A stretch of DNA of 60,000 nt from assembly GCF_036321535.1 (NCBI RefSeq), contig NC_087436.1, positions 74,340,001 to 74,400,000 on the forward strand, written 5' to 3'. Origin of the DNA: Camelus dromedarius (Eukaryota). Shown here piece by piece: positions 10,530 through 57,350 of this stretch (the first letter of the stretch is position 1; each line of letters begins with the position of its first letter). The notes below the pieces were generated by a model. The model did not search any database. It worked only from the letters and a program-made list of their open reading frames with translations, and had not been told where the DNA came from. The position numbers were made by a program, and so were the translations under genes.

Positions 10530-11420
10530 AAAAGCGAGAGCGCGGGCTTCTTGAAGTTGATACCTTGCTTTTGGATCCCTCTTCGTTTCAGAATGGGCGG
10601 GGAGGTGGAGTTAAGACACCTTTGTGAGTACGAACCGATGAAGCAGAGCCTGGGAGTGTGTGTCGGTCCCCTGAACACCACAACGACCGAGGACGCGGAC
10701 TGCGGAGGGGCGAGCGGAGCCCGACTCTCGCAGCCCGGAATCCGTTTTCAAACCTTCGGGAGCCAGCTCTGCCATTGACATGCAAATCCCGTCCTGAGCG
10801 CCCGGGCCAATCCGGGAGGCTTCCTGTGGGATTACCTGGTGGCGAGCGCCCCGCGAGCGCGGTCCCTCCGGCGCGGACCCCGCGGCCGGGGTGGCGTGGT
10901 GGTCGGGCACCCCCGCACCCTCCGGGCCCGGCGCGGGGATTCGGCCCCTCCGGCCGCGCGCCACAGGCCCGCCGCGCCGCAGCTGCAGTAGCCCGGACGC
11001 CGCGGTGCAGGGCGCGGCCGAGCCGCCCATTGTTGAGCGCGGCCGAGCCCCGCCGACGATGCCCGGCGCCGCCTCCTCGCAGCTGCGGCGAGATTTGAAC
11101 TTGGCGTCGGCCCGAGCCCAGCGCGGCCCCGCGGTAGGGGGGCAGCGGCGGCCCCGCGAGCGGCGATGGTGAGTTCGGTGCCCGGGTCCGCTTCCCCTGG
11201 CCCGCGGCCGGGGCGGCGGGGCGCACTGCTTCCTTTGACGAGGGAGGGCGGGTGCCTGCCGTCTGCTTTCTAAAGGGTGTCTATTTCGGTCCCTGCGGCG
11301 ACTCTGGAAAACCCGGTCAGTGCGGATGGGCCCGCGGGCGGGCTTTCTCTGCCCGCAGCCGGCCTGGTGGGGGGCGGCGGAGTGGGTAGGTGGCGCGCTC
11401 CGAGGGTCTCCAGAAATTCC
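10530..11420 (+). promoter_or_regulatory. CpG island, internal promoter of SHROOM3
   Basis: Very GC- and CpG-dense block within AT-rich intron. GC box GGGCGGGG 10595-10602, octamer ATGCAAAT 10780-10787, CCAAT 10807-10811, and a strong donor ATG|GTGAGT at 11168/11169. Confidence 0.9.
11059..11168 (+). CDS. SHROOM3: Putative alternative first coding exon of SHROOM3 (MPGAASSQLRRDLNLASARAQRGPAVGGQRRPRERR-W)
   Basis: ATG in context acgATGc (A at -3), 36 codons plus 2 nt, then a GTGAGT donor. Phase 2 joins exon 48116 in frame (TG|G = Trp, then RSEPVGRPHSW). Confidence 0.6.
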
Positions 11421-14019
11421 TGGGTCTCGGCCTTTTTTTTTTTTTTTTTTAATATTAAGGAAGCAGAAACTGCCACTTCAAAAGGAAAAGAACTGCAGTT
11501 TATTGACAGCGTGAAAACTTTTCAGAAGAAATGATCTGTGAAATATTTTAATTTTGATAAATTACTTTCTCCGAGGGCTCCTACTGAGTGTAGAACCACT
11601 TGCCTTTCTTAATTTTACTACATTTGTTTCTGTAGGAAATATCCCATTTTCAGGGGCATGCCTGCCCCTCCCCCCTTACACTTGTTAAAGAACTTAACGC
11701 AATTTTTGAAAAAGGTGTGTGCCACTGTCGTGTAGAAAAATTAAATAATGAAAATGAACGTATACCTGACACATGCTTTACTGAGTTGCCAGAGAGAGAA
11801 AGTGCATTGCTGAGGGGTTGGGGAGCGGTTATAAAATTTAAATACATTCAGCATCCGGTGGGGGTGGGGTGTGTCCGCCTCTCTCTCTGATGTATTTTGG
11901 CATTACTTTTGTTTGTTTTTAATTTAGTCGTAGTGTCGTTGTGGTACGCTTCTGTGCATGGAGCCTTTTGGACTGGGAGGAATGGGCGCCCATGACGTAT
12001 AATCTCCATGGAGAGATTGCTGCCAGACATCGGGGTGCAACAGGAAATCTTAGCACAGTGGCGTCTAAAGATAGTTCTATTTCTAATTAGTTAATATTTA
12101 AAGGCTAGTTAAATTATCATTTCTGATTAGAAGCGCTCGGGTCAGACATATGGCTAAATCGTCCCTCAAATCATCTCACCCTACCGTGGTTTACATCTTA
12201 ATTTTGATGGTTATTTTTGTCTTTTAAAAATCTTTTTTCCCTGATCACCAAAGTATGAATGATCATTGCAGAAAAGGTGGAATATACAAAACTAAGAAAG
12301 ATGTAAACTGTTTATAACAGTAGCATTTACATTCTATATAACAATAACATTTACATTCTATATGCTAAGGCCTAGTTTTTCATAGAAGCCTAGTCATTTG
12401 AAAACTTTGCAGCTAGGGACTTTTAAAAATTGCTGACAAACTTGGTTTAGGAGCTAAAACTAGGAATTGACCAGGAAATAAAATTGTACCTTAAAAAATG
12501 TGATAAACAACAATAACTTTTTCACACGGTTCATGGGACAGAATTTATTGTGGCAATTTCTCTTGAGTCAGCTTCCCACATCTGCTCCTGACAAATGGTT
12601 TCTGTTTGTATAGTCTGTTTTGTAAATACATTTCTACCACTAAGGCAAAGTGCCCAAACACATACTCCTTTCCCGTGCTGGTAGCTAGGCTCATCGAGTT
12701 AATATTTTTATTGGTTTCTGCATCAGAACTTCCTCACCGTCCACTTGATAAAACCCTGGAGAAGGTTACCAAGGGATGTTGCAGAGAATTTACTTCCCTG
12801 GAGATTTTAAGAATAGGATAAACATCCATCTGCCTAGGATGGCTTCAGTGCAGTACCATCTGGATAAAGGAAGGCTAAGCCACCTCTCTGAACCCCCAAA
12901 ATGAGGAATTCTAAACAAATTTCAGTTCTCAGTAACCTAGGACCAACAGAAATACAGATTGCTCCTAAGCCCAGGATGTGGTGAATCCCTGTTCTGATTT
13001 ATGTACAACAAATAGTCTCCTTTGGTAAGAGATTTTAAATGATCCCTGGGACTTGCCAATACTTTTCTATTGATAGAGAGCAAATCAATAATGATTTCTT
13101 TACCTTCTAAGAAGTTCTAGGTTGAATACAGTATAAGTTCCGTAACTTAAAGTAAATGAATGAATTGATTCATGGAAATTCAAAGTTCTGCCTCGTAAGA
13201 AGGCAGAAAGAGGGATGTGTGTGTAATAAACCCTGGAGCTTAGGTTGGTGTCCCTGAGAGCTGTCTCCACTGGGGACCCAGCCTTCTTTTCAGTCTCGCA
13301 TCCTGTGTGTTAAATCTGGTTACATTTTTACATGCACATTTTACTTCCTCCTCAACATTTATTCTTAACTTTCCATGTAGAAACTAGTGTAGAAACCCAG
13401 GTAGTCCTTTTACCCAAACCAGGTATTCCTATAACATCTGTTGGAGGCTGTTCCCCTGAACTACAGCTGTGGTGCTGTTTTCCTGGGGACTTTCAGAAGG
13501 GGGGGATTTCATGGGTTGCTGCTTCCTCTGCCCTCCTGTGTGACAGAAGTATCCTGTAATTCTAACCACTGTGTGACCTCAATTGCAGTCACACCTTCCT
13601 CCCTTTCTGTAGTGTCACTTGATCAAGAAAGCCAACCCCTTGTTCTCCCTGCAGGATCACTGGGAGGGGTTCACTTTCTAGGAAAGGTCATGTCAGAAAG
13701 AAAATGGGGAAGTCAGGAGTCTCTGGGCTGGGTGGTTTTTTTTACCTCTACCTCACATCCTTCAGCTTGTCATATTTCTCCACGCATGCCCAGCAGGTCT
13801 TCTTATGCCATGGTAACGCCCAGAGAAGGGATAGGAGTAGGAGCAATGGTGGCTCATTTGTTCAACAAACATTTGCTCTGTGGGAGGTAGCCCAGCAACT
13901 GGAGATGGGTTCTCTGCCCTCTGGGAACTTGTCATATAAGGGGAGCAATCAAACATGTTAATAAGCTAGTGCCACTTTGAGGGAGAAGAGTACAGGGGTT
14001 AGGAACTTAGTTTTGTTGT

Positions 14020-14560
14020 AAAGTTAAATATACATCAACCCTGTGACTCAACACATCCACGCCTAGCTGTTAACCCAAGTTGATGAAAACAAAGGTCCAC
14101 AAAATGATTTTTACAGAGCAGCCCCAGCAGCCTTATTCACAGTTGCCAACCACTGAGAACAACCCTCTGTCCATCAACAAGAAAATGGATAAATTGTGGT
14201 ATATCCATGCTGACGGAATACTACTCAGCAATCAAAAGGGATGAACTTGTGATATACACAACAGCCTGCGCGAATCTCAGAACCATTCTGTTAAACTGAA
14301 AGAAGCCAGACACCAAAGACTAGACAAGCAGTTCTGTTTTTGAAGTACTACAGGCAGAACTAATCTATGACAGCAGAAGTTAGTGGTTGCTTCTGGGAGC
14401 CAGGGAGTTTGACTGGAAAGAGATAAAAAGAGACTTTCTGGTCTCTGGGAAATGTTCCATGTCTTGATCTGTGTGATGGTTATACAATGATCAAACTACA
14501 TCAAACTGAACAGTTAAGACACATGTATTTTCTTGTATGCAAAGCATTAGCTCAATTAGA
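14020..14560 (+). mobile_element. Old L1 (L1M-type) 3' region
   Basis: gtccatcaacaagaaaatggataaattgtggtatatccat...ggaatactactcagcaatcaaaagg...gaagccagacac. Confidence 0.75.
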
Positions 14561-14569
14561 AGAAGAAGA

Positions 14570-14775
14570 AGAATTTAAGTTCTAGAGATGAATGAAGGTA
14601 TACATCCCATCTCTGCCTCTAGGTATGTGTTACCTTGGGCAAGTTATTAAATGCCTGTGAACCCGGAAACACTGGACAATAATAAAACAGCTCCTTCATA
14701 GGGTTGTTGTAAGGATCGAGTTAGATAATGAAAGTATTCTGCTTGGTAAGTACTAAATAAATGTCAGCTAATAAT
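14570..14775 (+). mobile_element. MIR SINE
   Basis: ccttgggcaagttattaa ... cataggggttgttgtaaggat-like core ... taaataaatgtcagcta. Confidence 0.7.
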
Positions 14776-17700
14776 CCCATGTACTGTAATAAATACGTGG
14801 TGTTGGTGTTGGTGACACTTTTTGGGAAAGCCACTTCACTTATTTAAGATTATCAAGGATCTTGTAACATATTAACTGATATCCTTAGCATTATATGTAT
14901 CTTCATTTTAATGGGTCCTTTCTCGAGGTGGTAGGGAATTTAAAGTTCTTGCCTACCTGATCAAAATACCGCTGGGGCTTTGCTTTGCCAACAGAGGTAA
15001 ACCTCAGCGAGAAGAAATACCTGCAAGGGAAGCCCTCTTTTTTTGAGGACTGATTAAATGATGGTAGTTAAGGCTAACTCCCAGACTAGGCGCACAGCAT
15101 TCACAGAATTCAGGCGAAGGGTTTACATATTACATCCTCTTTCCAAAGATGTAGATGGAAGAGAAAAACCGTTGATCTCTGTGTCTAATTAATATTGTGC
15201 TTTTTTTTTTTTTAAGGGACACATGGAACTCTAATTTTCAGTAAAATACCTTGCACAGAATGGTAAACATAAATAGTTAATCTTTTAAGCTTCAATTATT
15301 TACATTCAACAAAGTGTTTGGGAAAGACAATACATAGTTTGCCAACTCTAGCAGAGGCATTTTGTTGTTGGGTTGGTTTAATTCATTCAGTAAATATTTA
15401 TCAAACATTAACTGAGAACATATCAGCCTCCGGGAATTCAGTGATGAATAAGACATTTTACACTCAAGGGTTCATAGGTGCCCTAACTGTGAGTGTGAAT
15501 GTGTGTCTACTTCTCCTGGAAATTTTTTCAGAGCAGAGGGCTCTGTCTTAGGCTAGTCTTGTTGGTTTTTTAAAAAGCCTCTTGCGTAAGATGGAGGTTT
15601 AAAATCCTGGGTTTTTCCCTCTTTGTTGGTGCTATTTTCTTAAATATCAGAATTTCTTCTTTCTGTCTATACTTTAAAGTAACAACAACAAAATGGTCTT
15701 CTATAAAGGCAGTGTAGTGTCAGGGAATGGTCTTAGCCTGTGGGGACAGAACCCCTGGGTTTGCATCTGAGCTCTGCTACCTCCTAGTAATTTAGGGTTC
15801 TTAAATTCTTTAAGCCTGAATTTTCTCATCCACAAAAAGGTGAATAAGTAATACTTTGAAAGAGGTATTAATCTGTATCAGATCAGGCTGTTATAAGGAT
15901 TAAATGATAAAATACACATAAAAATAACTAGCCTGGCACCTGGCTAGTTAATTAATTTCTAATATTTATCAAGTACTTGCTAAGAGTCAAGCGCTGTCTG
16001 AAACTTGTATCTTCCTGACACTCCTGTGAAGTCGGCACTTTTATTACCCCTTTTCAAGGAAACCCAAAACACAGAAGAGATTTAAATAGCTTGCTGAGGG
16101 CATGGAAGTGCCAGGACAGGAACCCCCCCAAGATCTTGCATCTCAACCGAGAATGTTCATGATGTCAGTTACTTTTCCCTTTTAGGTAAAATTATTTTTG
16201 AGATTTAATTACCACAGGGAGAAAGGGACACCAGTGAGGGGGGCTAGGACCACCATTATGGGCTGCGTGCATGTGAACACTGGTGATGGAGAGTTGGTGC
16301 ATCTTTAAATGGTTAATGGGTCTACTTTCTACCTTGTGGAGGGGGGCTTGCAGGAGAGGTGCTGATGTACATGTCAGGGTCTTTCCCCTGCCCCTCAGAA
16401 GTCTTCCTGTCAGCCCTCCCTCCTACATTGCCCATCATCCCCTACCCCAGTGACTCCAATTAAGAAGTCAATGTGTGAACAAAAAATGTGGGCAACAAGC
16501 ACCTGTTAGGGTTTGCCTAGGTTTTGTGGAAGCCGTGTAGGGATTGACATGAATGTGATATTATTGTGGTCTCCACCAGGAAGGCAGAGTGAGATGTGTG
16601 CCCCAGACCCCTGAAAGTAAGAGGACCAGGAAACTGTTACCCTGGAAGATTTTGTATTCTCCATTTCCGTGGTGTTTCCTCAACTGCCTGGGCTCTAGAG
16701 AACCCTGAGTTAGAAGTTTAAGAATAAATCCCAAGAACCCGACTGAATTCATGAAGACATACAAAGTCACGCTGGCCAATTTATTAAAATAATGTGCAGA
16801 TACCTCGGAGAGGGGGTACGTAGTTAAATAACAGCTTTCCTGTTTAGATATGAGCCTTTTCACTTCATACCCACCCCGCCCCGCCCAAGTACTGGTTTTT
16901 GTGCGGAGGCTCTGTATTAACGTTCTCAACAACCACGCCTCTCCTCTGCAGTGAGGCTAGACAGACAGAACTTCAGGACCGTTTCCTCAACCACCCAGTG
17001 GTTCCAGGTCTGTTTAAGGAACACCCCCCCCCCCCACAAGAAGTCCCCCAGCCTGCAGAGTGGGGGCCTCTGGAGGAGATGTGCTGAAGCCAGGGGTCAT
17101 GGGAGGAGTCCCTTTGCAAAGTGCTGCTTGTATTTGAAGGAATGTCACCATGTACCAGTTTTGTTCATCCAAGTAACCTCATTATCTCAGAGCAAAATCC
17201 CTGGCGGATGAAATTTTTGGGGTTCTGCTCTCTGAGGGGGAGAAAAGAAACCTGCAGGGATCTTGGCTCCTTGGTTTTCCCTGACCCCTCAAGGCTGCTT
17301 GGCTGCGTGCAAGCTCCACAGCCTTTTAGTCTGATCTACAATAGCTCCGCTAAAGTCCGGAGAATCGCAGGACTGTCGCTTGAAGTCCCTCTCTGCCTCT
17401 TCACCATCGCCTCCAGCCTCTTTCCCTCAACTTTAAGCCCTTTGTGTTGGTTGCCATGGTTACCTCTTCACCACTAGCAGCTGGAATTCCATAGTGAGAG
17501 GAGGCTGCCTCCCCACTGAGCCAGGTCTGGCTGGGGCGGAGGCCACCAATCTGCCGCTGGGGTCACAGTCCAGTACCTTCTCTTTGTCATGGATTCTGTA
17601 CCCTTCCCAGGCTTGGCATGCTGGTGAGAGAGTGGCAGGGGAGACCAGGGCTGTTGTCCAGTGCACAGGGTATCTCCTGCCCTCAGCTGGCCTGGCTGCC

Positions 17701-18249
17701 CTGTGACCTGCCCGCTGCCGCTTCCTTTGGATGTTGATACCCAGGGCAGGACCTGCTCCACCCAGTCAGATAAAAATGACCACTCACTTCCCCACCTGCT
17801 TTCCCATCGGCTTTTATGCCCAATACCATCTGTTTATGCATAGTTGATGCGAACAAGGCTGTGGTCTGGAAGGATCTGGTACCCAAGGCAGGTTTTCCTC
17901 CAGCCTGGAAGAGCAGGCAGGCACAGGAAACTGGGGGACAGTGGGGAGACCTGAGGTTCAAGAGAGCAGTGTGAGAACACAGCTAGCTCAGAGTTTGTCA
18001 AGAAGCTGATCCTTCAGGTACTGTTTAAGGCCTAAATTTCTTCTCATTTGGGCTGCCATTGGCTCCAGCACTAAAACAGGAATTGTAAACCCGGGGGAAA
18101 ATGAAGCAGGCCCGGTGGTGAGAGCAGGGAGCAGCAGTAACCAGTAGAAATGGCCCCAAGCCGTCACTCCTGAGGAAGCCAGTGCTGGGGGAATGGTGCT
18201 CTTCCTGGGATCCGGCAGCTCGGTTTTCACGGTTGTGAACAAGGTTAAG

Positions 18250-18445
18250 GGCATGCTTTGGAGCTTTTATAATACATCGGGTCCTGGCTTGACCACTTTC
18301 TTTGTGATCTTGAGCAGCTTATTTGAATTACTCCATGCCTCAGTTTCCTTTTCTGTAAAAGAGGGCGAACACTTCATAGGGTTGTTGTGAGGATTGAACT
18401 TGTAATGTAAAAATACTTTGTAAAGCCCAACACAGGTGCCAATTT
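18250..18445 (+). mobile_element. MIR SINE
   Basis: tgtgatcttgagc...gcctcagtttccttttctgtaaaa...catagggttgttgtgaggatt. Confidence 0.75.
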
Positions 18446-20352: not shown

Positions 20353-21550
20353 TTTTTTTCATAATTGACATTTTATTGGTTGTTTTGAGGATCAGTTCAC
20401 AGATGTTTCAATTTGTACACAATTCTTAACATATATAACAAAAAAATAAAAAGTCATGAGGTTGTGATTCTTTTCTGAACAGTTATTCCTGTGACTTCCC
20501 AGCTTAAAATTTGGAGGCACATTTTCCTTAACAGAATATTAGGTACCAGTATCTTTAAATGTTGATACGCTGTTATATATAAGTCCCACTAATTCACAGT
20601 TTAATACCATAGACCCTACACACTCAAATTTCAACTGTTAACAGCATATTAAGAAAGTTACTAAGAAAACTGGACTACCACTACCAGAGATGTTACAGAG
20701 TGCACAGGATTCTGACAAGGAGAGCCAGGATCAAGGAGTGGTTGGCTTTAGGAAACAATTCACCAAAAACAACATGGAAAGAGAAGTAATCAGAAGTGTT
20801 CAAGACATAGTAAATGCACAGCTGACTCTAAATTGCCGTGTAGTATGCTTTGTATTATAAGATATAAAAACTACTATATGGATGTTAAGCTGACACCTAA
20901 GACAATCAAATCCCCCCCCATATTTAATATCCCACTGTTTTCTGGTTATACCAAAAAAATAAACAACCAGCAAATGATCTCACCTCTTTAACAAAAAAAA
21001 AAAAAGGCATTTACACTTTAAAAAATGAATGAGTGGGATTCCCTCCTTCTTAAAAATGTTTCTGCTTAAAAACTTGCATTTACAAAATAGTTGATAAAAA
21101 TGTTCCTCTGGATTGTACAAGAAGGGAGACGGGCCAGTGATAAAACCCAGTGTGTGATATTAATCAGACTTGGCGGCTTTCTCTCCTGCTTCATCAGAGG
21201 CTGTGCTCGCCTCGTTTTCAGTTTCCTGTTTCCTTCAGGTAAAGCTTCTTTAGTCTCTTGGTTAGCCACTGTGGCATGTTTTCCTTTTGCTCCCCTTTTC
21301 CTTTTGTTTGCACTTTTTTGTCTGAAGACTTATCCTTTCCTGCCACCCTTTTTGGCTTCATTTCCAGTTTTGCAGAAACGGGTTTAGCTGACAACCTCAC
21401 CGATCTCCTCTTGGGCTCCGTCGCCACCACCAAGCTGATCTTGTTGCTGGGCATCGTGGCTGCAGGGCGGGCGCCTGCCTGGTGCCTTCATCAAGCAGGG
21501 CTGCCTGGGCGCTGCCGCTCCTCCCACTGCCACCAGAGCTGCTAGGATCC
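20353..21550 (-). pseudogene. HMGN1: HMGN1 processed pseudogene (5' UTR, disrupted CDS ~21454-21160, long 3' UTR, short poly(A))
   Basis: Minus-strand translation EPKRRSVRLSAKP...KDKSSDKKVQTKGK, then a frameshift to ANQETKE, and a C-terminus ...AKSD-stop. Intronless, AATAAA at 20372-20377 (minus), poly(T) at ~20351-20359. Degenerate TSD ccaccttgtcgcttctt (20336-20352) vs ccacagtgtcacttctt (21551-21567). Confidence 0.93.
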
Positions 21551-25610: not shown

Positions 25611-28600
25611 CAGCCAAGTGAAGAATTAGGAGGAAGACTCTTCCAGGTGGAGGGAACCGCATTGTGAGAGTGAAGAGCTTGGTGGCCTTGGGGCACTCAG
25701 GGCAGGCCACTGAGGACAGGCCGAGTGAGAGGGGAGATGTTGAAAGTGGGGAGCAGCCGGGGCACTCGAGGCCTCGCAGCCAGGTTAAGGAATTTGGGTT
25801 TCCTCCAAAATGCACAGGAAGCTACACAAGTCTTATTAGAAGATGGCAGTAATCCACTTACATTTTTTAAAGGTCACCAGTGCTGGCTGCTGGGTAGGCC
25901 CTGGGTTGGAGTGGGGACAGGAGTGGATATGGCTGGTGAGAATGCTGTTCCCTCCTGGGCAGAACACAATAGAAAGGACGAAATTGCTGATTCTCAGAAC
26001 CAAGGTTGTAACTGTCCATGCTGAGGAGATAGGAGCCCCTGTCCCCCCAGCCCCATTTAAACTCAGTAGAAACCAGCAGCTCAAGGGATCTGGAGGGACC
26101 AGGTTATCAGGCCCAGCCCAGCTCCTGACATCTTTCACTCTGCTTTCCCCCGTCCTCCCCCATTTTTCACAGTGTTCAAGAGAACTACAGGAACAGGACA
26201 ATCTGGAACCTTTTCTTCAATGTTGGCTGCAACTCAGCTCAGAAAGCAGTTAAGGACTGTATTAAAATACCAAATAGTAAAGCAATCAGCATGTATATTC
26301 AGGAGTTATGAAAACTGGGGAGGAGATACGTATGTACTTATCAGAGGAAGTAGAAATAGGTAGGTGGTTGGCCTGGATTTCTTGTTTCTTAACTCTCTGG
26401 CAAGGAAAGATGATACTGGGATGTGGATCAATCATTGTTTTAGCCCCTGCTGAATCTTCTCAAATCAGCTGTGATTCCTGTTTCCTCACTCAGAGTTTGT
26501 GATGTTGAGAGTTCGTGATCTCTTGGAGAACAGCAGGAAACTGTTTTTTAAAGCCCTCCAAAACATCCCATAAGTTTTGGCAGCAAGAGTGACAATGGAA
26601 ATTTTTTCATTAGAATGTGTGCATTTAAAAATGTTTATTTGTTGTCCAGGTTATTCCAGAAAGCGTTAAAGGCAGAAAAGGTGTGTACTGGGTGCTGGTG
26701 ATTCTTCCTGCATTCCTTCTAGCCTGTTTCCTCCTTGGTGTAGGGCTCCCAGACAGCCCACTCAGGAGCCTCAGGAGCCAGCCCATCCAGGGAGGCTATT
26801 CTGTGACTTAGTCTGGGGACTGCAGTCAGAAACATGCAACACAGGTTTTATGAACCCTCACACCTAGTAGTTAATCTCAGCTGGTCCCCTGGAGGTTGGT
26901 AGATGGCCCTGGAGGGCAGTGCTGGCACTCATCTCTGCTAGGGCTGAAAAGAATCATGCATTGAAAAGCCTTAAAAAGAAGAGACAGTCTCATGTTCCTC
27001 CTCCTTCCATCTCTTTCCTATTTGCCTGGTCTTCCCACCAGCCCTTCCCTCCAACAGCCTGTACCCCAGACTTTCTGTCCCTTCGGGCCTCCCAGAGAGG
27101 GCACAGGGGCAAGGAAAAAGAAAAGGGCTCAGCCATTGTGCAGAAAGGAGGGAGCCAACAATTGTGGTTTATGCAAAAAAAAAAAAAAAAAAAGGAAGTT
27201 ATTAAATGCCACAAAGCTGTTGTGAAAGCCCAGACCTGGCCGTTAGTGTTCCCCCAGCAGACAACATCAGGGTCTGGAGCAGAGCTGTAAAGGCAAGCTG
27301 TCTGTCAGGATGGATTCTACCAATGGCGGTCTTAGATGTGCTGTTTATGTTTGTGTCATCTTTATGTTCATGGGTTTGATGATGAGATGCCTTTGAATAT
27401 ATTTTCTACTTCAGCTTAAGCCAGATGGCCTTTGGGGTTCGTGTGCTGAGGGTTGTAGGAGAAATCCTAAATGGAGACCACATGATGAATTCTGCAAAAG
27501 GCTTTGATGTGTTAACTCTGGACAAGGCTCTCCCCACTATTATTTCCAGCATAAATTAGGTCTCTTTAGTTGTGTCTGTTTCACATGACATCTTAGCTGA
27601 AAGGAACTCTAAAATGAAGGTACTGTTGAAGACAATAATGGAAATAATTTGTTAATTAAGCTCATACCCCATGTGGAGGAAGTATGCCAGACAGTTAATA
27701 GACATTATCTAGAAACTTTATAGCAACTCTGTAGGATACGTATAATAATAGTGGCTCATTTGCTGAGTGCTGAATATGTTGCAGACTCTATTGTAAGTGC
27801 TTTACCGGAATTACTTTAAGTTTCTCAATGACCCTCTGAAAGCCATTGTGCCTTTGTACCCATTTCAGAGATGAGAGAACTGAGGCACAGAGAGGTCAAG
27901 GTCACAGAGCTGGTCAGTGGTAGGGCCAGGGCCAGGCTCCCAGCATTGTGTGCTCTGCCTCTTATTTTCACATTACTGACAAGGAGAGCCTGAGGCTCAG
28001 TGTTCACTTGCCCAGTGTCATTCAGCTCACAAGTGACAGAACCTCAACCAGGTTTTCAAACTTCACTCCAGGGTAATACTGAATATATTCAAACCAGGAA
28101 TCTTAAATTTGGTGAGCAAAGTAATGTAACAAAGGAAGTGATGGCACTCAGGTAAAACTAAGGTAAAGTTTTAGTCCCTGCTGACTCCATGATCATCTCC
28201 CTCCCTGAAATACAAAGAAATCAACACCATTTGTTATCCCACCAGTCTCAGCCAAGGCTTGTGCAGAGGAGAGACAGAAGGCATGGTACCGTCTACAGAT
28301 TCCTGCTTCTAGGATGGGGTGCAAGGGCTACCGGTCGGTTCTCCAAGGCTTAGAAAGATCCTCAAAGACAGACATTGAAAACACACCACTGGTACCCAGC
28401 ATGGCAAACCCGCTCTGAGCCTGACGCAGGGGACAGTCTGCTCAAGAGGAGGCCCTGAAGGTGCAGTTGGGGTGTTTGGACATTCAGGAGCCAGGACCCT
28501 CCTAAGGAGAAGAAATGCATCTGTTCCTGTGGCGGACCGCATTGGCCACTCGGGGCTTAACATTTTTCTCAGACTCCCTGGGAGTATGGAGGACAAGATT

Positions 28601-29180
28601 TATGGGAATGGTGTGGGGGGCCGGGGGTGGAGGGTGGATTGAAACGGACACACAAAAGGCTTGCCTCCAGCGCAGCGGAATCTAAACCATCTGAAATAGC
28701 TCGGGCTCAAGAGTTGGCATGTGCTTCTGAGCTGCCACCCACTGCACAGAGCGAGGACCGCTGCACTCGGAGATCGCTCTCTGTACGGCGAAACCAGCGG
28801 GGACTTGCCTCAGGGAGCCACTTCTTTTGACAATTTGCCTTCGTGAGTCCAGTTTTTCACTTACAATAGATACTGAAATATAGGAGGGTTCACCTTCATC
28901 ATAGTTAATAATCTTTCTTCTCTCTTGGCTGGAAAAATCTGGTCTTCTCTGATTGGGAAGTATACGTTATTGTTTCACAGAAACACAGGAGAGGATGGAG
29001 ACCTTCATTCACCTTCCTTGGGGCAGAGCACCGGGGTGGGTGCAGGCTTAGCCCTCTGCACTTAGCTGTGCTGCTCTGGCCCCGGGCTTCTTTCTCATTC
29101 ATTTTTCTGTGTCAGAATCCTTCATGCCCCCTGCCCGTGAATACCATCACACTCAACTTCCTGTTTTCCTCTTTTTCCAG

Positions 29181-29312
29181 AGATGCGTGTGCAGACCCAG
29201 GCCCTGTAGATACTGGCACCTCTGACTCCTTCAGCCCGGAGCACCTCACCTCTGATACCCCACACAGGAGAGCAGCATGGTCAGGAGGAGTTAAACTGCG
29301 GCTGAAGCACAG
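29181..29312 (+). CDS. SHROOM3: SHROOM3 internal coding exon (canonical exon 3; DACADPGPVDTGTSDSFSPEHLTSDTPHRRAAWSGGVKLRLKHR)
   Basis: Polypyrimidine tract and ttccag acceptor, donor ag|gtagga, 132 nt, phase 2-2. The peptide matches the post-PDZ segment of SHROOM3. Confidence 0.92.
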
Positions 29313-34266: not shown

Positions 34267-34346
34267 ATGGCTTTTTATGCCACTCCTGAGTGTGACACGC
34301 AGTTGCCCAGAGGGTTGCTATCTAGGCTATTTATCTTTGCCCCAAG
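34267..34346 (+). CDS. SHROOM3: Putative alternative first coding exon of SHROOM3 (MAFYATPECDTQLPRGLLSRLFIFAP-R)
   Basis: Strong Kozak gaaATGg, 26 codons plus AG, near-consensus donor AAG|GTAAGC. Phase 2 is in frame with exon 48116 (AG|G = Arg). Repeat-free, motif-rich upstream region. Confidence 0.65.
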
Positions 34347-38830: not shown

Positions 38831-38909
38831 TAATTTTTTTAAAAGATGGGGGAAAATAGGGAAAAAATCACAGCAACACACAAAAAGAACCTTAGGAAAC
38901 ATACTTTAA

Positions 38910-39452
38910 ACCTAAAGTCCGTCAACAGATGAATGGATAAAGAGGATATGGTACATATATATGAAGAAATATTACTCAGCCATAAAAAAGAATGAAATAA
39001 TGCTACTTGCACCAACGTGGATGGACCTAGAGATTATCATACTAAGTGAAGTGAGTCAGACAGAGAAAGATAAATATCATATGATATCACTTATATGTGG
39101 AATCTAAAAAAAAAAATGACACAAATGAACTTATTTACAGAACAGAAATAGACTCATAGACATGGAAAACAACCTATGGTTACCGAAGGGAAGGGGTGGG
39201 AGGGATAAATTAGGGATTTGGGATTAACAGATACACACTGCTGTATATAAAATAGATAAGCAACAAGGACCTACAGTGTAGCACAGGGAACTATATTCAG
39301 TATCTTATAATAGCCTATAACAGAAAAAAATCTGAAAAAGACTTTATATATATATATATATATATAGTATAACTGAATCACTTTGCTGTACACCTGAAAC
39401 ATTATAAATCAAGGATACTTTAATTTAAAAAAAATCAAATTTAAAAAAAGAA
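38910..39452 (+). mobile_element. L1 3' end (same family as 102-894) containing (TA)n
   Basis: gtccgtcaacagatgaatggataaag...ggacctagagattatcatactaagtgaag...gcacagggaactatattc, then an A-rich tail. TSD aggaaacatactttaa / aagaagcatactttaa. Confidence 0.92.
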
Positions 39453-44050: not shown

Positions 44051-45689
44051 GGAAATTGTAGAAAAGTCCAGATAGCTTACATTTAAAAGAAAGCCTTGCT
44101 CTTGTCTTCAAAGCACAAAGAGAAATTTTCTTCACCTTACCTAGATGAAAGTGCTCCATTTATCATCGTCGTACTCTGCACAGCCTCGTTTTACACTTCA
44201 GCGTCTGATTCAGAACTTTGCGCAGTGTCTGATCCTTCATGAGGGAGGTGTACCAACTGATTTTAAGACTGGGTCGCTGTGTTCTGCTACAGGGCACCCC
44301 CTCACTTCTTCCCACTGAGATTTCAGGCTGGAGGGCTTCTCTGGAATCCCTGAGGTTATTGGTAAACATTGTCTCATGCCTCAGCTCCTTGATGAGAAGA
44401 GGGACCTTCTCTTCTCTCTACAGAGCCTGTTGAATTTTCCAGCCCTGTCCATTTCCCTTGGGTGGGAAAAGCTGCTCAGCCCCGGGGTATTTAGCTGAGC
44501 ATGGACGGATACTGTTGGGGTATAAAGATGCCAAAGAGCCGTTCTCAGCATTACCATCCTCAGGTGCTGGGCTGCCTTCACTCTTCACCTGTGCCCGTTG
44601 CTTCCCGAGTCCTACCACTGAGAACTCTTCACTTGGCAGCCAGAACATGAGTGATGCTCAGAGCTGGGCCGCTCCACCACCAAGACAGTTTGCTTTTTCT
44701 CCTTAGGTATTTTGGACCCATTTGGGTCCAGAATGATACGTATATGAAATGTTTCCAGGTGCCTTATGCTAAAGAGACTTTATATTTTTTTCCATTAAGT
44801 TCTGGGGTTTTGCTGTATGATTAACCAGTAACATTTATTGAGTCTGAAGTCATATGTAGCTTGGTTTGAGCACTGACCCTGGGACTTAACAGACTATGTG
44901 ATTTGGCCTGTCCTTAAGGGGCTTGGAGCACTGGGAAGGATTTCTCATCACTGGATGGAACTGGGTGATAAGGTGGGAATCTAAGTCAGTGAGGAATTGG
45001 GGTTCAAGGGGGTAGCCTGGCTTCGAGGAACTGGTCGAAGAGGCATCAGCCTAGTTTCTGAGAAGCAGGGTGTGCAGGGTCAGAGTGGAGCTAGCAGCAA
45101 GAATGCCAAGCCACTCAGATCCTGAGCCGTGAACCCAGGGCTCCCTGAATGCCTCCCTGAGCAAGGATGGATTGAACTTACCGGAGGAGTGGGGCACCTG
45201 GGGCCTTCTGTGAGGATTAGAGAGGGATGGGAGCAGGAAGCCAGGCAAGTTGTCATCTGTTGGCTTCCGCAGTGGGCCTCTTAATTTCGCATCCTGCTGC
45301 ATCTCTCTGGCCCAGGGCAGTGCTGCTGTTCCCTTGAGTTCTGTCCTTGTACCCAGGTGGGCAAGGCTTGTTCCTCCTTGGCCTGTGTTTACTTCCCTGA
45401 CTAGAGGTCCCAGCCACTGCCCTGGCCTCACCAGAATGGCCAAGGTCCTTCAGGCTGTGACCACAGTAGGTCTCAGCACAGGTTCTGCCCTAATTCTTAA
45501 CTCTTGATACCTTACTGGGATGCTCAGAGCTGGGCCACTGCGCCACCAAGAGTTCCTGTCCATTCCCCTCCCCGCTTTCATTCATCCAGCCTCTTGCTCC
45601 CCTTTTCTGCCCTTCCTCTCAGAGCTCTCTAACGGGCTTACCTCGACTCCTTATCAATTCATTAATAATGAATGGTTGATGATAATTAT

Positions 45690-48115: not shown

Positions 48116-48247
48116 GCGCAGTGAACCTGTGGGCCGACCTCACTCCTGGCATTCAACCAAATTTGGAGACAGCCAACCCGATGCCAGCATGATGCAGATA
48201 TCTCAGGGCACGATTGGCACTCCTTGGCCCCAAAGCTACCATTCCAG
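48116..48247 (+). CDS. SHROOM3: SHROOM3 internal coding exon (canonical exon 4; RSEPVGRPHSWHSTKFGDSQPDASMMQISQGTIGTPWPQSYHS)
   Basis: Acceptor gtctccccag|, donor cag|gtaagt, 132 nt, phase 2-2. Carries the Shroom-family RPHSWH motif and is in frame with the flanking exons. Confidence 0.95.
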
Positions 48248-49659
48248 GTAAGTGGCCACACCTGAGGCCCAGGGGGTTCTTACTTTGAAATATCCTGTTC
48301 CCAGAAAAGATTGTTTTCTTAAACTCACGCCGAGTGTTAAATCTCTCTCCCCACCATCCTCATCTTCAAACCCCTAACATGTGTACGTGTCATCCTTGCA
48401 TCCTGGGCTAGAACTGGTGTAGAGGGAGGCCAGGATTATTACGAGCACTGACCGGCCATTTGAGATATTTATGGGGTCTGTCGAGTCTCGGTCAGACCCT
48501 TCTCACATACACATTATAACCTGTGCTAGAAAAACTGACGACTCCCTCCCTCAATGCTTCACGTCCTTCCTTCTATAGTCAGATATGTATCTGTTTTTTA
48601 TCCCAATGATTGTATTCAGTATTTGAACTCCCCCTTGGTTTTTCTCCCTCCGTTCAGGCCAGTTATCCAGTTTGGCTCCAACTGAAGCAGTTAACACACT
48701 GAGAACTGTTCAGCGTGTACGTCATCTCATGTGGTCCTTCATACATGCCTTTGAAACAGATACAGTGTTCTTAACCCTGTTTCACAGGACAGGAAGCAGA
48801 AGCTGGAGAGATGAGTTTGTCCAAGGTCAAGTGTCTGATCAGTAACCTAGTCAAGACTCACATCCAAGCCAGGTTTCAGCACCACTGCCCATAGCCACTG
48901 GCTATACTTCCTCTGTACTAGTTAAACTAGTTGTACATCCTCTGCTTTTCTAGTCACTCTATCAGTCAAGGTCTGTCAGGAAAAAGCAGGTTATGGGAGG
49001 AGAGATTTATTATAGTAATTAGAGCTTACACAGTTGAAGGGGACTGGGGAGAAGGGGGCCGAGCCTGATCACCCAGACATATTACAGAACTAAGTCAGGA
49101 AGCCCCTACACTTACTGCAGACTTGGAGCCATGCGAATTTGCATCCATCTTCTGATTCCAGGGAGGCAGGCTCTGCCACTCACCACTTTTTGAAAGTACT
49201 TGGATACGGGTGGTGGTAGGAAGGCTGGAGGCTCAGGGTAACGTGGGTCCTACGTGAATGAGATGTAGGTGCTGCTGCATATCAGGGAGCGGGGAGTTGG
49301 CTTCTGGAAGGATTACTTAACTAACAGATGGTGGCTATGCATTTGGCCAGGACTCAGAACCCCTAACACTCATGTCTGCCCAAATCAATGGCCAAATCCC
49401 AGATCTCTCAAGGGTGGGCATGGCGCCCAGCATATTACGATACTTCCCTGGCTGCCCTCCTTGTTACAGACACTCCTCTCCCTTGGCCCTCCCAGTAACC
49501 CTGAGAGAGTTTATTCTCACCATCTGAGCCATGTGTGCTCCGGGACCAGAGACCCTGGCAGGGCCCACACCACACAGGCAGAGAGCGTTTGCTCTGTGGG
49601 CGCGGAGGTGTTGAAGACCTTCAGAGAATTCGCTTTGGGAGCCTAACAGTGTGAAGGAA

Positions 49660-49890
49660 GCACGGCGTGATGGTGAGGTACTTGGGCTTCTAAGTCAGAC
49701 CTCGGGTTAAATCTCAGCTTCACCACCTACTGCATGAGCTTGAGCAAACCACTTAACCTCTTTGATCTTGATTTCCTTGTCTGTAAAATGAAATTAATAA
49801 TATATATCTCACTGGATCATAAGGAGGACTAAACAAAATAATGTGCAAAACATTCAGTGTAGTCCCTGGAATGTAGTAGACACTCAATAA
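49660..49890 (+). mobile_element. MIR SINE
   Basis: aagtcagacctcgggttaaatctcagcttccacc...ctttgagcaaaccacttaacctct...ctgtaaaatg. Confidence 0.8.
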
Positions 49891-51539
49891 TTATGAAAAC
49901 TTATTATAATAATTAGGCTGAAGACTTATCAGATGCACAGTGAAACCTAGTAATGAACTAGAGAAATGGCATAAACCGGCTCATATTTATAGAATGCAGG
50001 TGCATGTTAACAGAAGACCCCTACGCAGTGGGGCCCTTTGAAGCCTCCTAACCCCTCACCTTAGGAGGCCTGAAATCTGAAGTCATGCTGTGACCTAAAA
50101 AATATGCTAGTCCAAAGGCAGAAATAAGGCAACTGTAACCAGTGCTTAGAATAACTGCTTGCAGGAGCCCTGGTGAGCGCCAGGAGGCCCCGGGAGGACG
50201 GCGGAGGCGGACTCGGAACTGTGGTATCCTGAAGCTTCTCCACTCGCCGTTTCCTTCTCGGCCCAAGCTCCAGAGGGGTTTAGGCAGGTGGATCTTGTAC
50301 TGTACCTACCAGTCTGTCATCCAGTTCAAGCTTCAGAACAGCCTCCCTCTGACACAGTGACTGTCAGCACAAAAGCTCTGTAGAGGGTACAGAGGGAGAC
50401 TGGAGAGCTCAGAGCACCCAAAGTGACTGACGTGTGGATTCTCCTCGACGCTGGCACAAAGCACCCTGTGGTCTGTTCACTCCGTGCCTCGGGCTTCCAG
50501 CTCCAGCAGCTCAGAGCCTGCTTGGAGAGTCTGCCCTTGGCAACTGTAGATGGGGAAGCTCTGCTGGCACATTTCTGGGGAGCACAGTGGCAGCTAGTAG
50601 TCTGGGGGTTGGCATTCCTCTGACAGCCTTCATTTAGTTCCAGAAACCCCATCTCAGTCCTAAATGTGTGGATCTGTTTCTCATTAAAAAGCGGGAGGAG
50701 GAGGGAGCTCGAGGGGTGGGGAGAGGCAGGAGTGAGGAGAGAGGGACAGGTGTTCAGAGAGACTGAACACATGTAATTTTCACTGTCTGCAAGCTGGCTT
50801 GCATCTGGGATTTCACAGAAATTGTATTTCAGCCGCTTTCTGTCAGACCCTTGTCGCTGAGTTTTTGCTGTCCTACAGAGATCTCACAATGGTCCTCAAG
50901 TATTAAAGAAGAAACCTTAAAGTCATGTAGTCTAGTCCCCTCCTAAGAGGCTGAATTAACAGTATCAAAATTCTAAAGAACCAGTATGTGTTCATTGATT
51001 CTTTTCTTTGACAAATAGATGTGGAGTACCTACTATGTCTCAGATGATTTCTAGTTATTGAGGGTACAAGACTGAACAAGACATAAAAAGCCCCCACCCT
51101 GTAATATTTATTGTTTCCCCAGGTGGGGGGTTCTATAGAATAATAATCCATTAGATGTGCCTTAGAAAAAATTTCTAGGGTCATATACATTTAGAAAACT
51201 CTGCTTAGTATATTTTCCCTTAAAAACATCATGTGAACAATAGTTTATTAAGGACTCAGAAGTCTTAAAGTAACTACAGTTATTTAACTTATTTATCCCA
51301 GTGTCTTCCAAACATATTTGATCATCCAAGGAATTAATGTTTTGGGAATACACTTTAGGAAATGTTTTCATATACTTGCTTTGTGCTCTTTGCTGTATTT
51401 TAAGTATGTAGAAAATACTTTTAAACATAAAATAGAGTAACATTCTAAGGATGCTTGGCTCTACCACAGAATTAACATTTAGTTATATTTGCTTCAGATC
51501 TTAAACATTATAGATACAATGGAAGTCTCTTTCATACAA

Positions 51540-51850
51540 GCAGAGGGATGTGATGTAATATCAAGTAGCGGTAAGTGCTATGAGGTAATAAAGCAGAGTA
51601 ATAGGGAGTAAGGAGAGAGGAGGTACTTTTTAGATAGTGAGTTCCAGGAAGTCTTCTGTGATGCAGAGACTTGACTAGAGGAAAGGAGTGAGCCAGGTGA
51701 AGAGCATTCCTTGTGGTGGGAACAGCGAATACAGAGGCCCTGAGACCCTGACATGGGAATGTATCTCATGGGTTTGAGGGACTGTGAGTAGGCTGTCAGT
51801 GAGCAAGAAGGAGGGCAATAGAAAATGAGGTTGGAGAGGTCGCCACACAC
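51540..51850 (-). mobile_element. L2 fragment
   Basis: gtaagtgctatgag...aaggagtgagcca...gaagagcattcc...gggaacagc...aggccctgag. Confidence 0.7.
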
Positions 51851-54130
51851 AGCAGGAACTCTGACACACTCGACACACTCATCTTGATAGTAAGGCTATC
51901 TCTGTGTGGGCTGGGACTGTTGCAGGGACTGAAGACCTTCATGCTATGTTCTTTTTAAGCATCACTGAGAGTGCCATCTTGGAAGCAGGAATGGTGAGGG
52001 TAATCAGAGTGGCTGCTCCCAGGATGTGGTAGAAGACCTTATTCCTAGAGGGTGATGTCAGGGCACTCCATGGCATGGCACAAGGCATTCATCATGGTCC
52101 CCAGTCAACTCAGGAATGGGAATTCTCTGAAAAGCAGGGAAGAGCATGTCACAGTCCTCAGGTGATGCATTCCATCTGAGGATTGGTGGGTTCAGTTTCC
52201 TTTGGCTATGGGATGGAGCCCACTCTACCCTTGCGCTGCCTGGCTAGAGACATGTACGCCAGTGACTTCGTGTTTCCAGACACCATCTGTATTTTGAAGT
52301 AAGTTGGTGACGACGTTTCCTCCCACTTAGTAGTGCTTCCGTTAACCCGTCAGTTAATACACTTTAATTTAGGAACGTGCAAGAAAAAGTCAAATTTGAA
52401 TTATCCTTTCAATGAAAGACTGCTAAAATTCTTAGCAGTTGGGAGGAGGATTTAGTGGTGTCTACCACCTGCATGGAACTGGTAAGCGATACAGCCCTTG
52501 TGGGATCGACTGCTTCCAGGTCCCCTCGAAGTATTAGCTCTGAATCTTCTGTTTGAGGAGATAAAGGGAAGCAGAAGTGGGTCATATGGGATTATCCTCA
52601 ACTGAGCCTTGTCATGTGCATTTTCAACACAGCCTCTTCACGTAGAGGGGAGCGTGGCGGGTAAAAGCTGGCAGTGACATCTGCCGTGCCACTGAGTGCC
52701 AGGACTGATTTCCCTCATCTGGTTGGCTCGGGAGCTGTCCCCTTCCTTTCTCCCTTGAATTTAACACCTGTCCCTCCCAAAGCAGGATGTTCCAGAAAGT
52801 GAGTTCACTTCCTCTGATAGAGAAAAATTACCTTCTTGGGGTGAGTTGATGAAAATGTAGTCTTCTTTTCCTTGAATTCCTGTACCAGTTTTGACTCAGA
52901 ATATGATCCTTCTAGTCTCTTCCCACATACTCTGGAGACAGTCCAGCCATTCAGCACTGCCACATCCTGGGCCAGTGAGACACCACATTTACTTACAGGA
53001 GATCTAGAAATATAATAATAGCTCCATGAATTTTAATCGTGCCTGGCTGCCTAGTCATTTAAAAATGGAAAACCTTAGGCAAGAGCTCTTAATTCTTCTT
53101 TACTCTTCTTTAGGGAATAGTGAGCCACAAACGTGTGAACTGTGGAGACTATTTGATTTTTGATCTACTGATTCCTTCCTGTATCTATGTCCCTCCTCCC
53201 CCAGCATGTTGGGGAAGTATATTTTGAAATTGTAATCAAAGCTAATTACAAGTAATTCTGTTCCAGGCAGCTTTCTGGGGTGTATGATGCCAGGAGTCAG
53301 AGTCATTCCGCCTCCCCTAGGCAGGCTCTGAAAATCACCTGGAGGAGCCTGTGATAGAGAAAGTGTTACCGTCCGAGTGTTTGAGACTGTGCCCAGACTC
53401 TGGAAGTCGTCCATGGGTGATGGATGCCCAGCACCCAGGAGCCTCCTGTGACTGGGCCTCCCTCTCGTTCTCTCTCGTCTGCTCTTTCTGACTCTTCATC
53501 TCCCTCTCTGTCCTTCTCTCATTCAGTTTCGTGTTTGGCTTTCTCACCACAAACAAATTGTCTCTTGTACAGTTGGGATTCCAGGAAGATTGCCAGAGAG
53601 TAGCCCTTCAATTCCATAAAAAGGAAAGATATTAACTAAAACCATGTACATGTGCAGAGTCTCCCTCACCCAGGCGCGTGCCTGGTCTCTTACTAAGCTT
53701 TCCCCTTTCTTCCCACAGCCCGCCCCAAGGGACGCAAAATGCAGTCTCCGTCCCTCGCCTCTTTCCTCGCCTCTTTCCTCGCCCACCTCTCGCATTTCTT
53801 GGTCTATGCAGAATGTTACTCCTGGCACATAACAAATCACATCAATGTTGCTGCCTGTGCTCAAAGGCCGCCTGGCTTCCTCGTTCTCCCCACTTCTCCC
53901 CTGGTGAGCCTGGGTGATTAATTAGAGGCACACAGGTTACGGTGTTGGGCAATTACTCCTAGTGACGACACGTAGGGAGGCCGAGTCAGGCCCAAATATG
54001 GCCCTTTCCCTGACCCTTCCAGAAACCAAACATCTTGCACAAGAGTACATTTATAAGCTGGGTCCTGTGCCTGTAAGCCTGCTGAATGCTAGCAGCTCAG
54101 TGCTGACTGCTTTGCCTCCCTCTCTTCCAG

Positions 54131-57100
54131 CTCCTCTACCAGTGACCTCTCCAACTATGACCATGCTTATCTGAGGCGGAGCCCTGACCAGTGCAGCTCC
54201 CAGGGGAGCATGGAGAGCCTGGAGCCCAGCGGAGGATATCCGCCCTGCCACCTTCTCTCCCCGGCCAAGTCCACCAGCAGCATCGACCAGCTCAGCCACC
54301 TCCATAACAAGAGAGACTCGGCTTACAGCTCCTTCTCCACCAGTTCTAGCATCCTTGAGTATCCACCCCCGGGCGTCTCTGGCCGGGAGCGCTCAGGCTC
54401 CCTGGACACCATTTCTGCTCGAGGTGGCCTCCTAGAAGGGATGAGGCAGGCAGACATTCGCTATGTCAAGACAGTCTATGACCCCCGGAGGGGAGTCTCG
54501 GCCGAGTATGAGGTGAACTCTTCAGCCCTCCTTCTCCAAGCTAGGGACACCCGAGCATCCACAGATGGTCAGGGCTATGATAAATGGCATAATGTTCCTC
54601 GGGGCAAGGGAGCGCCACCTGCTTCCTGGAGCCAGCAGTGCCCCAGTTCTTTGGAGACCGCTGCTGACCACTTGCCTCCTAAAGTGGGCGCACCTCTGCC
54701 CCCGGCTCGGAGTGACAGTTATGCCGCCTTTCGGCAGCGGGAACGGCCCGGCTCTTGGTCCAACCTCGATCAGAAACGGTCCTGCCGGCCTCAGGCCAAC
54801 TCTGCAGGCGCCCTGAAATCTCCCTTCATGGAGGAACAGCTGCATACGGTGCTAGAGAAGAGTCCAGAAAACAGCCCCCCCGTGAGGCCCAAGCATAATT
54901 ACACGCAGAAGGCCCAGCCTGGCCAACCTCTGCTGCCAACTGGCATCTACCCGGTACCTGCCCTGGAGCCACACTTTGCCCAGGTGCCCCAGTCTTCCGT
55001 AAGTAGTAATGGCACGCTCTACCCTGCACTGGCCAAGGAGGGCGGGTACACCACTCCCCAGGGAGTTTGCGACAAGATGGCTGCCCTTGACGAGAATGGG
55101 AACCAAAATGGCTCTAGCAGGCCTGGCTTTGCCTTCTGCCAGCCCCTAGAACATGACTCCGTGTCCCCAGTAGAGAGGAGACCCGAGACTTCAGCCAAAT
55201 GTGTCCCCTACAAAGTCCATTTCCCTTCAGTGCCTGAAAACGAGGAGGAGACCTCCCTGAAGAGACACCTCACACCTCTCCAGTGTGACAGCCCACTTCC
55301 CAGTGAGAGAAAGAGCTCCCACGGCAACAAGTACTCTCATTACCATGGCCTCCAGTCCCCTCAGGCTCAGGCCTGGCACGTGGGTGAAGACAAGCGATCT
55401 TTCACGCCCTCAGAGCCTTGGGAGGGGGATTTTCATGAAGACCATAATGCCAACATCCAGCGGAGGCTCGAGAGAGGCAGCCTAGGCCAGAGCATGCCAA
55501 GCAACTTTGGCAAGACCAAATCTGCCTTCTCCTCCCTCCAGAACATTCCTGAGAGTCTAAGAAGGCAGAGCAGCCTAGATTTAGGAGGGGGAGCCCAGGA
55601 TGTATACCTGGATGGCCGGCCGACTTGTGCAGTCAATGCCAAGGCAGAGGACTCTGGAAGGAAAGTTGTTCCTGATCACAGGAGCCACCTGGACAGGTCA
55701 ATTTCTTGTCCAAGGCCGGAGGGGAGAACTAGTGCCTTGGCTTCTTTCCACAGTTCAGACCCAGGGTATGAAGAGCCGCTCTCCCCACGCCCCCAGGAGA
55801 CATGGAGCCTGGGCCGAAGGAGGCTCAGCTCCAGCAGCGCCTCGACTTTGCAGGGCTTTCAGTACGGGAAGCCCCACTGCTCAGTGCTGGAGAAGGTTTC
55901 CAAGATCGAGCAGCGAGAGCAAGGGAGCCAGAGACCCCCAAGTGCGGGCAGCAGCTCGAGTTATGCCTATAACCACAGGCCCAACAGGACATTTCCAACT
56001 TCCAATCCTTTGGAAGAGACAAAAGCCCACATCCGTTTTTCCGAATCCACTGAATCCCTAGGCAGTGGGGAGCAGCACTTCAAAAACGAGGAGCCAAAGT
56101 CAGGAGAGGCTTCCTGGCAGCCGTGTGGTCAACAGCCGAGGCGGGGTCCTGAAGGCGGCCGGGGCCCCCAACTACGGGCCGGAGAACCCACCAGGCGGGA
56201 CACTCGCCTACTCCGCAGCCAGAGCACCTTCCAGCTCTTCAGCGAGGCCGACAAGGAGGCTGTCTGGCGGGACGAGAGGCCTGGCACGCCCAAGTCGCCT
56301 GAGTCGCCAGTGCCAGACGCCCCCTTCAGCCGCGCCTATCGGAATAGCATCAAGGATGCACAGTCCCGTGTCCTGGGGGCCACCTCCTTTCGACGCCGGG
56401 ACCTCGAGTTGGGGACGCCCGTGGCTTCCAGGCCCTGGCAGCCGCGACCTGCATCGGCCCATGTGGCGCTGCGGAGCCCCGAGGCGCGTGTTTCCACCTC
56501 CCCGCACACCCCGCGGGAGCGGCACAGCGTGACCCCGGCCGAGGGCGACCCAGCCCGGCTTGCGCCCCCCGCCGCGCGGAGAGGGGCACGCCGGCGCCTG
56601 ACCCCTGAGCAGAAGAAACGCTCTTACTCGGAACCCGAGAAGATGCACGAGGTGGGGGTCTTGGAGGAGGCCGATCCGGCGACCCCGGGCCCTCCGAGGA
56701 AGGGGCCGCATTTCGCCGAGAACTCGGTGGCTGACCGGCGCCGTATCTTCGAGCGCGACGGCAGGGCGTGCTCGACACTCAGCCTGTCCGGGCCCGAGCT
56801 GAAGCAGTTCCAGCAGAGCGCCCTGGCCGACTACATTCAGCGCAAGACCGGCAAGAGGCCCGCCGCCGGCCTCCAGGAGCCCCGGCCGCTGCGGGAGCGC
56901 GCCCAGAGCGCCTACCTCCAGTCCTCGCCCGCGACGCCCGAGGGCCCCGGCCTCGCTGCGGCCTCCAGCCTCTCCTCGCTGCGGGAGCCCAGCCTGCCGC
57001 CCTGCAGGGAGGCCACCCACCTGCCGGCCGCCGCAGTGGGGGGTGGCGGGGAGCCCTCGCGGGTCCCTCGAGATCGCAGCAGCTCCTTCGCCGGTGGCCG

Positions 57101-57341: not shown

Positions 57342-57350
57342 GTATGTGCA
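56100..57350. promoter_or_regulatory. Intragenic (exonic) CpG island over the ASD1-coding region
   Basis: Marked rise in GC and CpG density in the 3' third of the giant exon. Confidence 0.75.

Follow-up and report, generated by a model that had tools for sequence, protein, structure and literature searches.

Candidate alternative first exons of PDZ-less SHROOM3 in the dromedary, one of them annotated in isoforms from all four placental superorders

The SHROOM3 locus and the protein collection

The window analysed here, a stretch of 60,000 nucleotides from Camelus dromedarius (NC_087436.1, positions 74,340,001 to 74,400,000), covers camel SHROOM3 from intron 2 to exon 5, with the PDZ exons lying upstream of it. 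Exon numbering was inferred from the camel protein P0001 together with the usual layout of the gene, and the following constant exons were placed:

29181-29312, plus strand: SHROOM3 exon 3, 132 nt, phase 2 to phase 2, first base A, peptide as in P0001 except for one residue
48116-48247, plus strand: SHROOM3 exon 4, 132 nt, first base G, holding at 48189 the Met-Met that is the common short-form start
54131-57341, plus strand: SHROOM3 exon 5, large, including ASD1

The exon 5 frame is 100% identical to the Camelus dromedarius Shroom3 (P0001), in which Pfam recognises ASD1 (residues 888-1074), ASD2 and PDZ, while only ASD1 and ASD2 are recognised in isoform P0149. Exon identity, the two ASD domains and a PDZ domain in the long form identify the gene as the SHROOM3 ortholog, and exon 5 was present in 20 of the 24 runs listed. 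All three exons are entered in phase 2, which confirms what the first-pass annotation of this DNA had stated for those at 48116 and 54131.

Several other features were recorded along the way. A second CpG-rich region lies within exon 5 (56001-57400), and some protein models (P0121, P0127, P0156) begin near the end of that exon. P0001 and P0122, like similar X1/X2 pairs in many species, differ by one residue (1997/1998 aa), which suggests a tandem splice acceptor. On the minus strand, 21239-21412 (a tblastn subject) has a Lys-rich translation which we take to be that of an HMGN-type processed pseudogene, and the translation at about 38930-39016 resembles a remnant of LINE-1 ORF2 at its C-terminal end.

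For comparison with orthologs, 404 proteins were collected, comprising 120 of 246 sequence-search matches, one protein from a short-protein search and no more than 15 of the members listed for each of 30 clusters, the large primate cluster of 279 members being sampled at the same depth. Non-mammals are included, RefSeq XP entries are predictions, and 383 of the 404 proteins have at least 1600 residues and were regarded as full-length. When these 383 were classified by N-terminal pattern, 135 begin with the PDZ exon, 26 have their entry at exon 2, the N-terminus of 58 is of the MVLSKG type, 64 start at the Met-Met of exon 4, four start in exon 5 and 80 have other N-termini. Many exon-4-start proteins carry three or four transcript accessions each, and a class of this kind (64/383, several transcripts each) is as expected where non-coding first exons converge.

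Candidate sites and the chance level of phase-2 frames

It had been suggested that four intronic sites form a set of alternative first exons giving PDZ-less SHROOM3 different N-termini. All four frames are indeed present, each of them ATG-started, free of stops and ending in phase 2 at a GT:

11059-11168, plus strand: ORF of 36 codons + 2 nt, then GT, in the first exon of a CpG island
34267-34346, plus strand: candidate first exon, 26 codons + AG/GTAAGC, joining exon 4, with ortholog isoforms
44654-44706, plus strand: 17 codons + 2 nt, then GT; donor score 1.0, rank 240 of 3032
53845-53903, plus strand: 19 codons + 2 nt, then GT; donor rank 44 of 3032, T at +4

Donors were scored with an approximate matrix that serves for ranking only; among the 3032 intronic GT dinucleotides, 34346 ranks second and 11168 sixth. 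Phase-2 sites of 15-60 codons with a donor score of at least 4 number ten in total, one of which is the true exon-4 donor at the edge of the interval, leaving nine intronic sites that comprise three from the proposed set and six others. At the same threshold phase 0 yields 10 sites, phase 1 six and the minus strand three, and at a score of at least 0 the counts for phases 2, 0 and 1 are 56, 50 and 33, with 45 on the minus strand. No enrichment of phase 2 over the other phases was thus detected in the intronic sequence of the window. The set of four is at chance level as a whole, and separate evidence is therefore required for each site. No match to a canonical TATA motif was found upstream of any of five sites.

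The 34267 exon, the CpG-island exon and the remaining candidates

The ATG at 34267 has G at both -3 and +4, and the 26 residues that it opens form the N-terminus of 17 RefSeq isoforms from 17 mammals among the 404 proteins (14 recognised by pattern, and P0363, P0366 and P0373 by BLAST). These come from armadillo, tamandua, elephant, ground squirrel, two pangolins, flying fox, horse, warthog, sheep, zebu, pygmy sperm whale, panda, grey seal, jackal, stoat and ferret, and span Laurasiatheria, Euarchontoglires, Afrotheria and Xenarthra, that is, all four placental superorders. In 17 of 17 isoforms the 26 residues run without indels into a junction residue, after which exon 4 begins, so that ATG, frame, length and donor phase are kept in orthologs at the protein level, with the ascertainment bias that this N-terminus is annotated only where a species keeps an intact frame. 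The camel peptide is 50-73% identical to those of the 17 isoforms, with 65% identity between camel and the others (85% in exon 4), and the mean pairwise identity among the 17 is 77%, as compared with 86% in exon 4. Anchored alignment at 34267 gave scores of 78-103 against at most 17 for the next best (12 isoforms). As a control within the locus, camel and dog were compared at a UTR-like exon ending at 10414 (described below), where identity is 41% with gaps and stops, as against 65% without gaps at 34267. On the evidence of these predicted models, 34267-34346 is a conserved coding alternative first exon that already figures in automatic annotations of other mammals, as the first-pass annotation had cautioned might be the case for its stronger sites; from its sequence, phase and orthologs we infer that it is transcribed in camel and that the 26-mer is translated.

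On the other hand, 34267 might be a real transcript start whose DNA is kept for regulation or splicing, the peptide being incidental or decaying in camelids and the protein being made mostly from exon 4. In this regard, the camel identity of 65% lies near the range obtained by neutral simulation (52-62% at assumed distances of 0.35-0.25), and because of this proximity it may be that constraint on the peptide is relaxed in camel, where three residues are found in no other species and an internal Met is lacking. Moreover, only 4 of the 26 alignment columns are invariant, amphipathicity is not significant, two bats (P0249, P0331) have a shorter form beginning at an internal Met, and none of the 12 camelid-cluster models carries the peptide. 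This explanation is nevertheless judged unlikely: 17 species and camel show no indel, stop or loss of the ATG, whereas in an indel-free neutral simulation the ATG together with an uninterrupted frame survives in just 17-51% of single pairs, and many of the substitutions are conservative.

The 34267 peptide was not seen among the listed primate and murid/cricetid models, sampled at no more than 15 per cluster. Pfam has no family for it or for the 11059 peptide, and the ESM Atlas returned no usable match, a result which indicates neither absence nor novelty. An amphipathic helix at residues 11-26 was considered and found to be unsupported (shuffle P 0.24-0.47). Of two metagenome scans for the exon, one gave no matches and the other 60 pattern matches, none confirmed. 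A short-protein search using residues 1-40 of P0149 as query produced one match among 12 candidates, P0258; this ORF of 51 residues has the 34267 peptide but lacks exon 4, and it has the appearance of read-through from unspliced genomic sequence.

The second site of interest, 11059-11168, falls in the one CpG island that is not part of exon 5:

10601-11400, strand not assigned: CpG island, GC 0.71-0.80, CpG observed/expected 0.98-1.04

This island is likely to be an internal promoter of a PDZ-less transcript, its activity being presumed from the sequence. The 11059 ATG has A at -3, and its exon ends in TG, which joined to exon 3 (first base A) gives the stop TGA, whereas joined to exon 4 (first base G) it gives TGG (Trp). 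Because the default 11168>29181 splice creates this TGA, the frame would act as an upstream ORF (uORF), and the junction 11168>48116 is one of exon skipping, since exon 3, which had been overlooked in the first-pass annotation, sits between the two. A second ATG at 11166 opens an out-of-frame ORF of 15 codons running into exon 3, and the path that includes exon 3 holds five short ORFs (36, 15, 8, 5 and 3 codons) before the exon-4 start. A CpG island, a strong donor and a short ORF ahead of the main start are all present, as predicted for a promoter exon with a uORF. Among the 404 proteins, N-termini resembling that of 11059 occur only in two GenBank genome models, sheep P0005 and pangolin P0359, both of which contain extra unsupported segments. 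The ATG and the first half of the ORF are retained in both; in sheep, however, the second half of the exon is read in another frame of the camel DNA, and in pangolin the 3' end is in the camel frame with a different length. With TGA at the exon-3 junction and a shifted frame in sheep, 11059 does not behave as a conserved coding first exon, the pangolin being partly in frame. No RefSeq model among the 383 full-length proteins has this N-terminus, and a database search with the frame found none among 65 candidates, which is weak evidence as it was limited to proteins of 82-2000 aa. It has been concluded that 11059 is probably a 5'UTR promoter exon with an upstream ORF, coding only when exon 3 is skipped.

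This last possibility could be taken further, in that 11059 may serve two uses, as a uORF with exon 3 (TGA) and as an Arg-rich extension of the N-terminus on skipping of exon 3 (TGG), splicing thereby switching translation. The junction codons allow it, exon-3 skipping is present in other isoform models (e.g. P0009, P0295, P0314), so that a minor in-frame form may exist, and the start and first half are kept in sheep and pangolin; but with the frame lost in sheep, lengths that differ among the three species, both matches coming from GenBank genome models with unsupported segments and 0 RefSeq models among 383, such a dual role appears quite unlikely.

Two further candidate first exons were found, one upstream and one downstream of the island:

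10395-10414, plus strand: 3' end of an additional first exon, ATG + 6 codons + AT/GTGAGC, in frame on exon 3 with junction ATA (Ile), 7 residues
17589-17623, plus strand: possible first exon, 11 codons + TG/GTGAGA, donor rank 32, weak

The exon ending at 10414 lies just upstream of the island. The canid RefSeq N-terminus P0313, which aligns at 41% identity (E 2e-4) over 10173-10415, has its end at the 10414 donor, the camel frame upstream of 10395 contains stops, and in the bat models P0327 and P0379 the first 7 residues follow the pattern of 10395-10414. For 17589-17623, the canid RefSeq N-termini P0319/P0322 match at E 0.001, and joining to exon 3 in camel yields the stop TGA. Just before exon 3, stretches within 28458-28842 are similar to the way in which the models of pig (P0154), hamster (P0268) and beaver (P0296) begin at the N-terminus, and in camel this region has an in-frame stop or weak donors. 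The bat P0338 and anteater P0374 share an alternative N-terminus of about 47 residues on exon 3 that was not located in the window and is possibly, judging from these two models, a third conserved coding first exon. The MVLSKG-type N-terminus constitutes a second conserved class (58 of 383 by pattern), and its exon was not found in this window; a weak match of this peptide at 11263 (E 0.34) was rejected because a near-identical alpaca version would be expected and is absent. This picture fits many 5' exons whose short frames would be gained and lost by lineage, plus two conserved coding ones.

As regards 44654 and 53845, neither peptide matched any of the 404 proteins at E<=0.1. The GT at 44706 resembles an acceptor (polypyrimidine tract + TAG/G), not a donor, and an out-of-frame ATG with A at -3 stands at 44647, 7 nt before 44654. 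The last 20 nt contain 75% C/T at 44654 and 90% at 53845, and the hydrophobic ends of the two peptides, which had been proposed as swapped N-termini and do exist, are translated pyrimidine runs. Pyrimidine content alone cannot separate the sites, as the exon end at 34346 is also 70% pyrimidine; it is conservation that separates them. The sole alternative N-terminus seen to join exon 5 (marmots P0282/P0288) does not map to 53845. With neither ortholog support nor a donor above background, both are probably chance frames, as the original caution about the two weaker sites had allowed. About 90 nt before 44654, the segment 44502-44564 is similar to the N-terminus of the dingo model P0323 (E 0.001) and has a weak donor; it may mark conserved non-coding DNA.

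Thus, the view that all four sites are coding first exons swapping N-terminal peptides onto a constant body is highly improbable: every frame exists, 34267 is confirmed by orthologs, and 11059 lies in a CpG island with a strong donor, has A at -3 and resembles an ORF in pangolin, but phase-2 frames are unenriched, the 44654 and 53845 peptides match 0/404 proteins, and 11059 stops on exon 3, is frame-shifted in sheep and, for what that weak search is worth, is absent from 65 database candidates. Of the original proposal, what is supported is that several promoters serve the gene and that some of its first exons are short and coding (34267 in 17 species, and the MVLSKG class), attached to a constant ASD1/ASD2 body; what falls is the set, one of its four sites being conserved as coding. 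Searching annotated isoforms for the four peptides recovered that of 34267 in 17 RefSeq isoforms, a resemblance to that of 11059 in two GenBank models only and those of 44654 and 53845 in none; likewise, ATG and frame are conserved at 34267 (17/17, protein level), and the 11059 frame is shifted in sheep.

A model of a probable internal promoter region and its meaning

We consider it probable, from the sequence and the ortholog models, that this is an internal-promoter region in which 34267 is a conserved coding first exon, 11059 an island exon with a uORF, 44654 and 53845 background, and the exon-4 Met-Met the fallback start. Several alternative first exons would feed exons 3 and 4, all boundaries being in phase 2. 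Most of them would be 5'UTR, and translation would therefore fall back on the exon-4 Met-Met at 48189, yielding the known short form. The 34267-34346 exon would place 26 residues straight on exon 4, producing a protein without PDZ or exon 3 that exceeds the short form by about 50 residues. The 11059 uORF, if active, most likely lowers translation of the short form from the island transcript, and the likeliest role of the 34267 exon would be that of a separate tissue-specific promoter, its peptide supplying a strong first ATG and avoiding the uORFs of the island transcript; a role in targeting is possible for the peptide. A bolder version has a small but real chance of being correct: an undescribed promoter would lie downstream of exon 3, the placental-conserved 26-residue peptide would be translated and would alter the location or lifetime of SHROOM3, and exon-3 skipping would also yield an Arg-rich N-terminus from the island uORF. 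If so, the 34267 form could escape alleles that hit only transcripts started upstream, such as the mouse gene trap, provided that the 34267 exon is kept in mouse and is located downstream of the gene-trap insertion.

Variable-first-exon arrays like those of the protocadherin and UGT1 genes consist of tandem paralogous exons encoding whole domains. The SHROOM3 candidates do not form such an array, as they have 17-36 codons and each ortholog N-terminus maps to one site with no similar second exon. The closest counterparts of the camel exon are RefSeq SHROOM3 isoforms (XP_070119744.1, horse; XP_071072047.1, armadillo; XP_049741909.1, elephant; XP_077877562.1, ground squirrel), which resemble it in length, Met1, phase and the exon 4 junction, whereas 0/12 camelid-cluster proteins carry the peptide. 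The MVLSKG-type first exon of placentals and marsupials (alpaca, XP_072798088.1) is likewise short (about 26 residues), conserved, in phase 2 and PDZ-less, but it joins mostly exon 3 and is unrelated in sequence.

One review describes three SHROOM3 transcription start sites (TSSs), with a short form of exons 3-11 made from TSS2 and TSS3, and 13 transcripts (PMC10722951), the human short isoform from TSS2/TSS3 being attributed to Prokop et al. 2018 (as cited in PMC10722951, PMC12790856 and PMC8073710). In mouse, long and short (ShrmS) forms have been reported to have similar activity (PMC9860048). As these sources present them, the human short isoform and ShrmS arise from internal promoters before exon 3 and lack PDZ but have ASD1 and ASD2, with which the CpG-island exon at 11059 fits; the human TSS2/TSS3 forms hold exons 3-11, whereas the camel 34267 exon begins after exon 3 with its own peptide. 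A promoter switch has been described in rat heart (PMC8742872). The Drosophila isoforms ShroomA and ShroomB (PMC7875558) similarly come from one gene and differ on the N-terminal side, as the alternative forms do here, and also in localisation; ShroomB, however, lacks the actin-binding region, whereas all SHROOM3 forms considered here retain ASD1, with differences of about 26-180 residues among them. In the mainly open-access literature searched, neither the 34267 peptide nor a uORF in SHROOM3 was found to be described, and the exon could already be among the 13 transcripts or in the supplements of Prokop et al. 2018. In short, alternative SHROOM3 promoters are already published, and the 34267 exon is annotated in other species and apparently unstudied.

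SHROOM3 is a kidney-disease and neural-tube gene, its secondary start site has been linked to a kidney risk variant (PMC12790856, PMC8073710), and its alternative start site is counted among the best characterised in physiology (PMC12790856), which is why the first-exon architecture proposed here is unsurprising. The 34267 isoform, so far confined to automatic annotations, bears on isoform-aware reading of variants and on the mouse gene-trap allele, which lies between exons 3 and 4 by the numbering of the paper that reports it (PMC10259099). For camel, the 34267 exon amounts to a fix of the annotation, and the whole belongs to the ordinary use of alternative promoters for which this gene is known.
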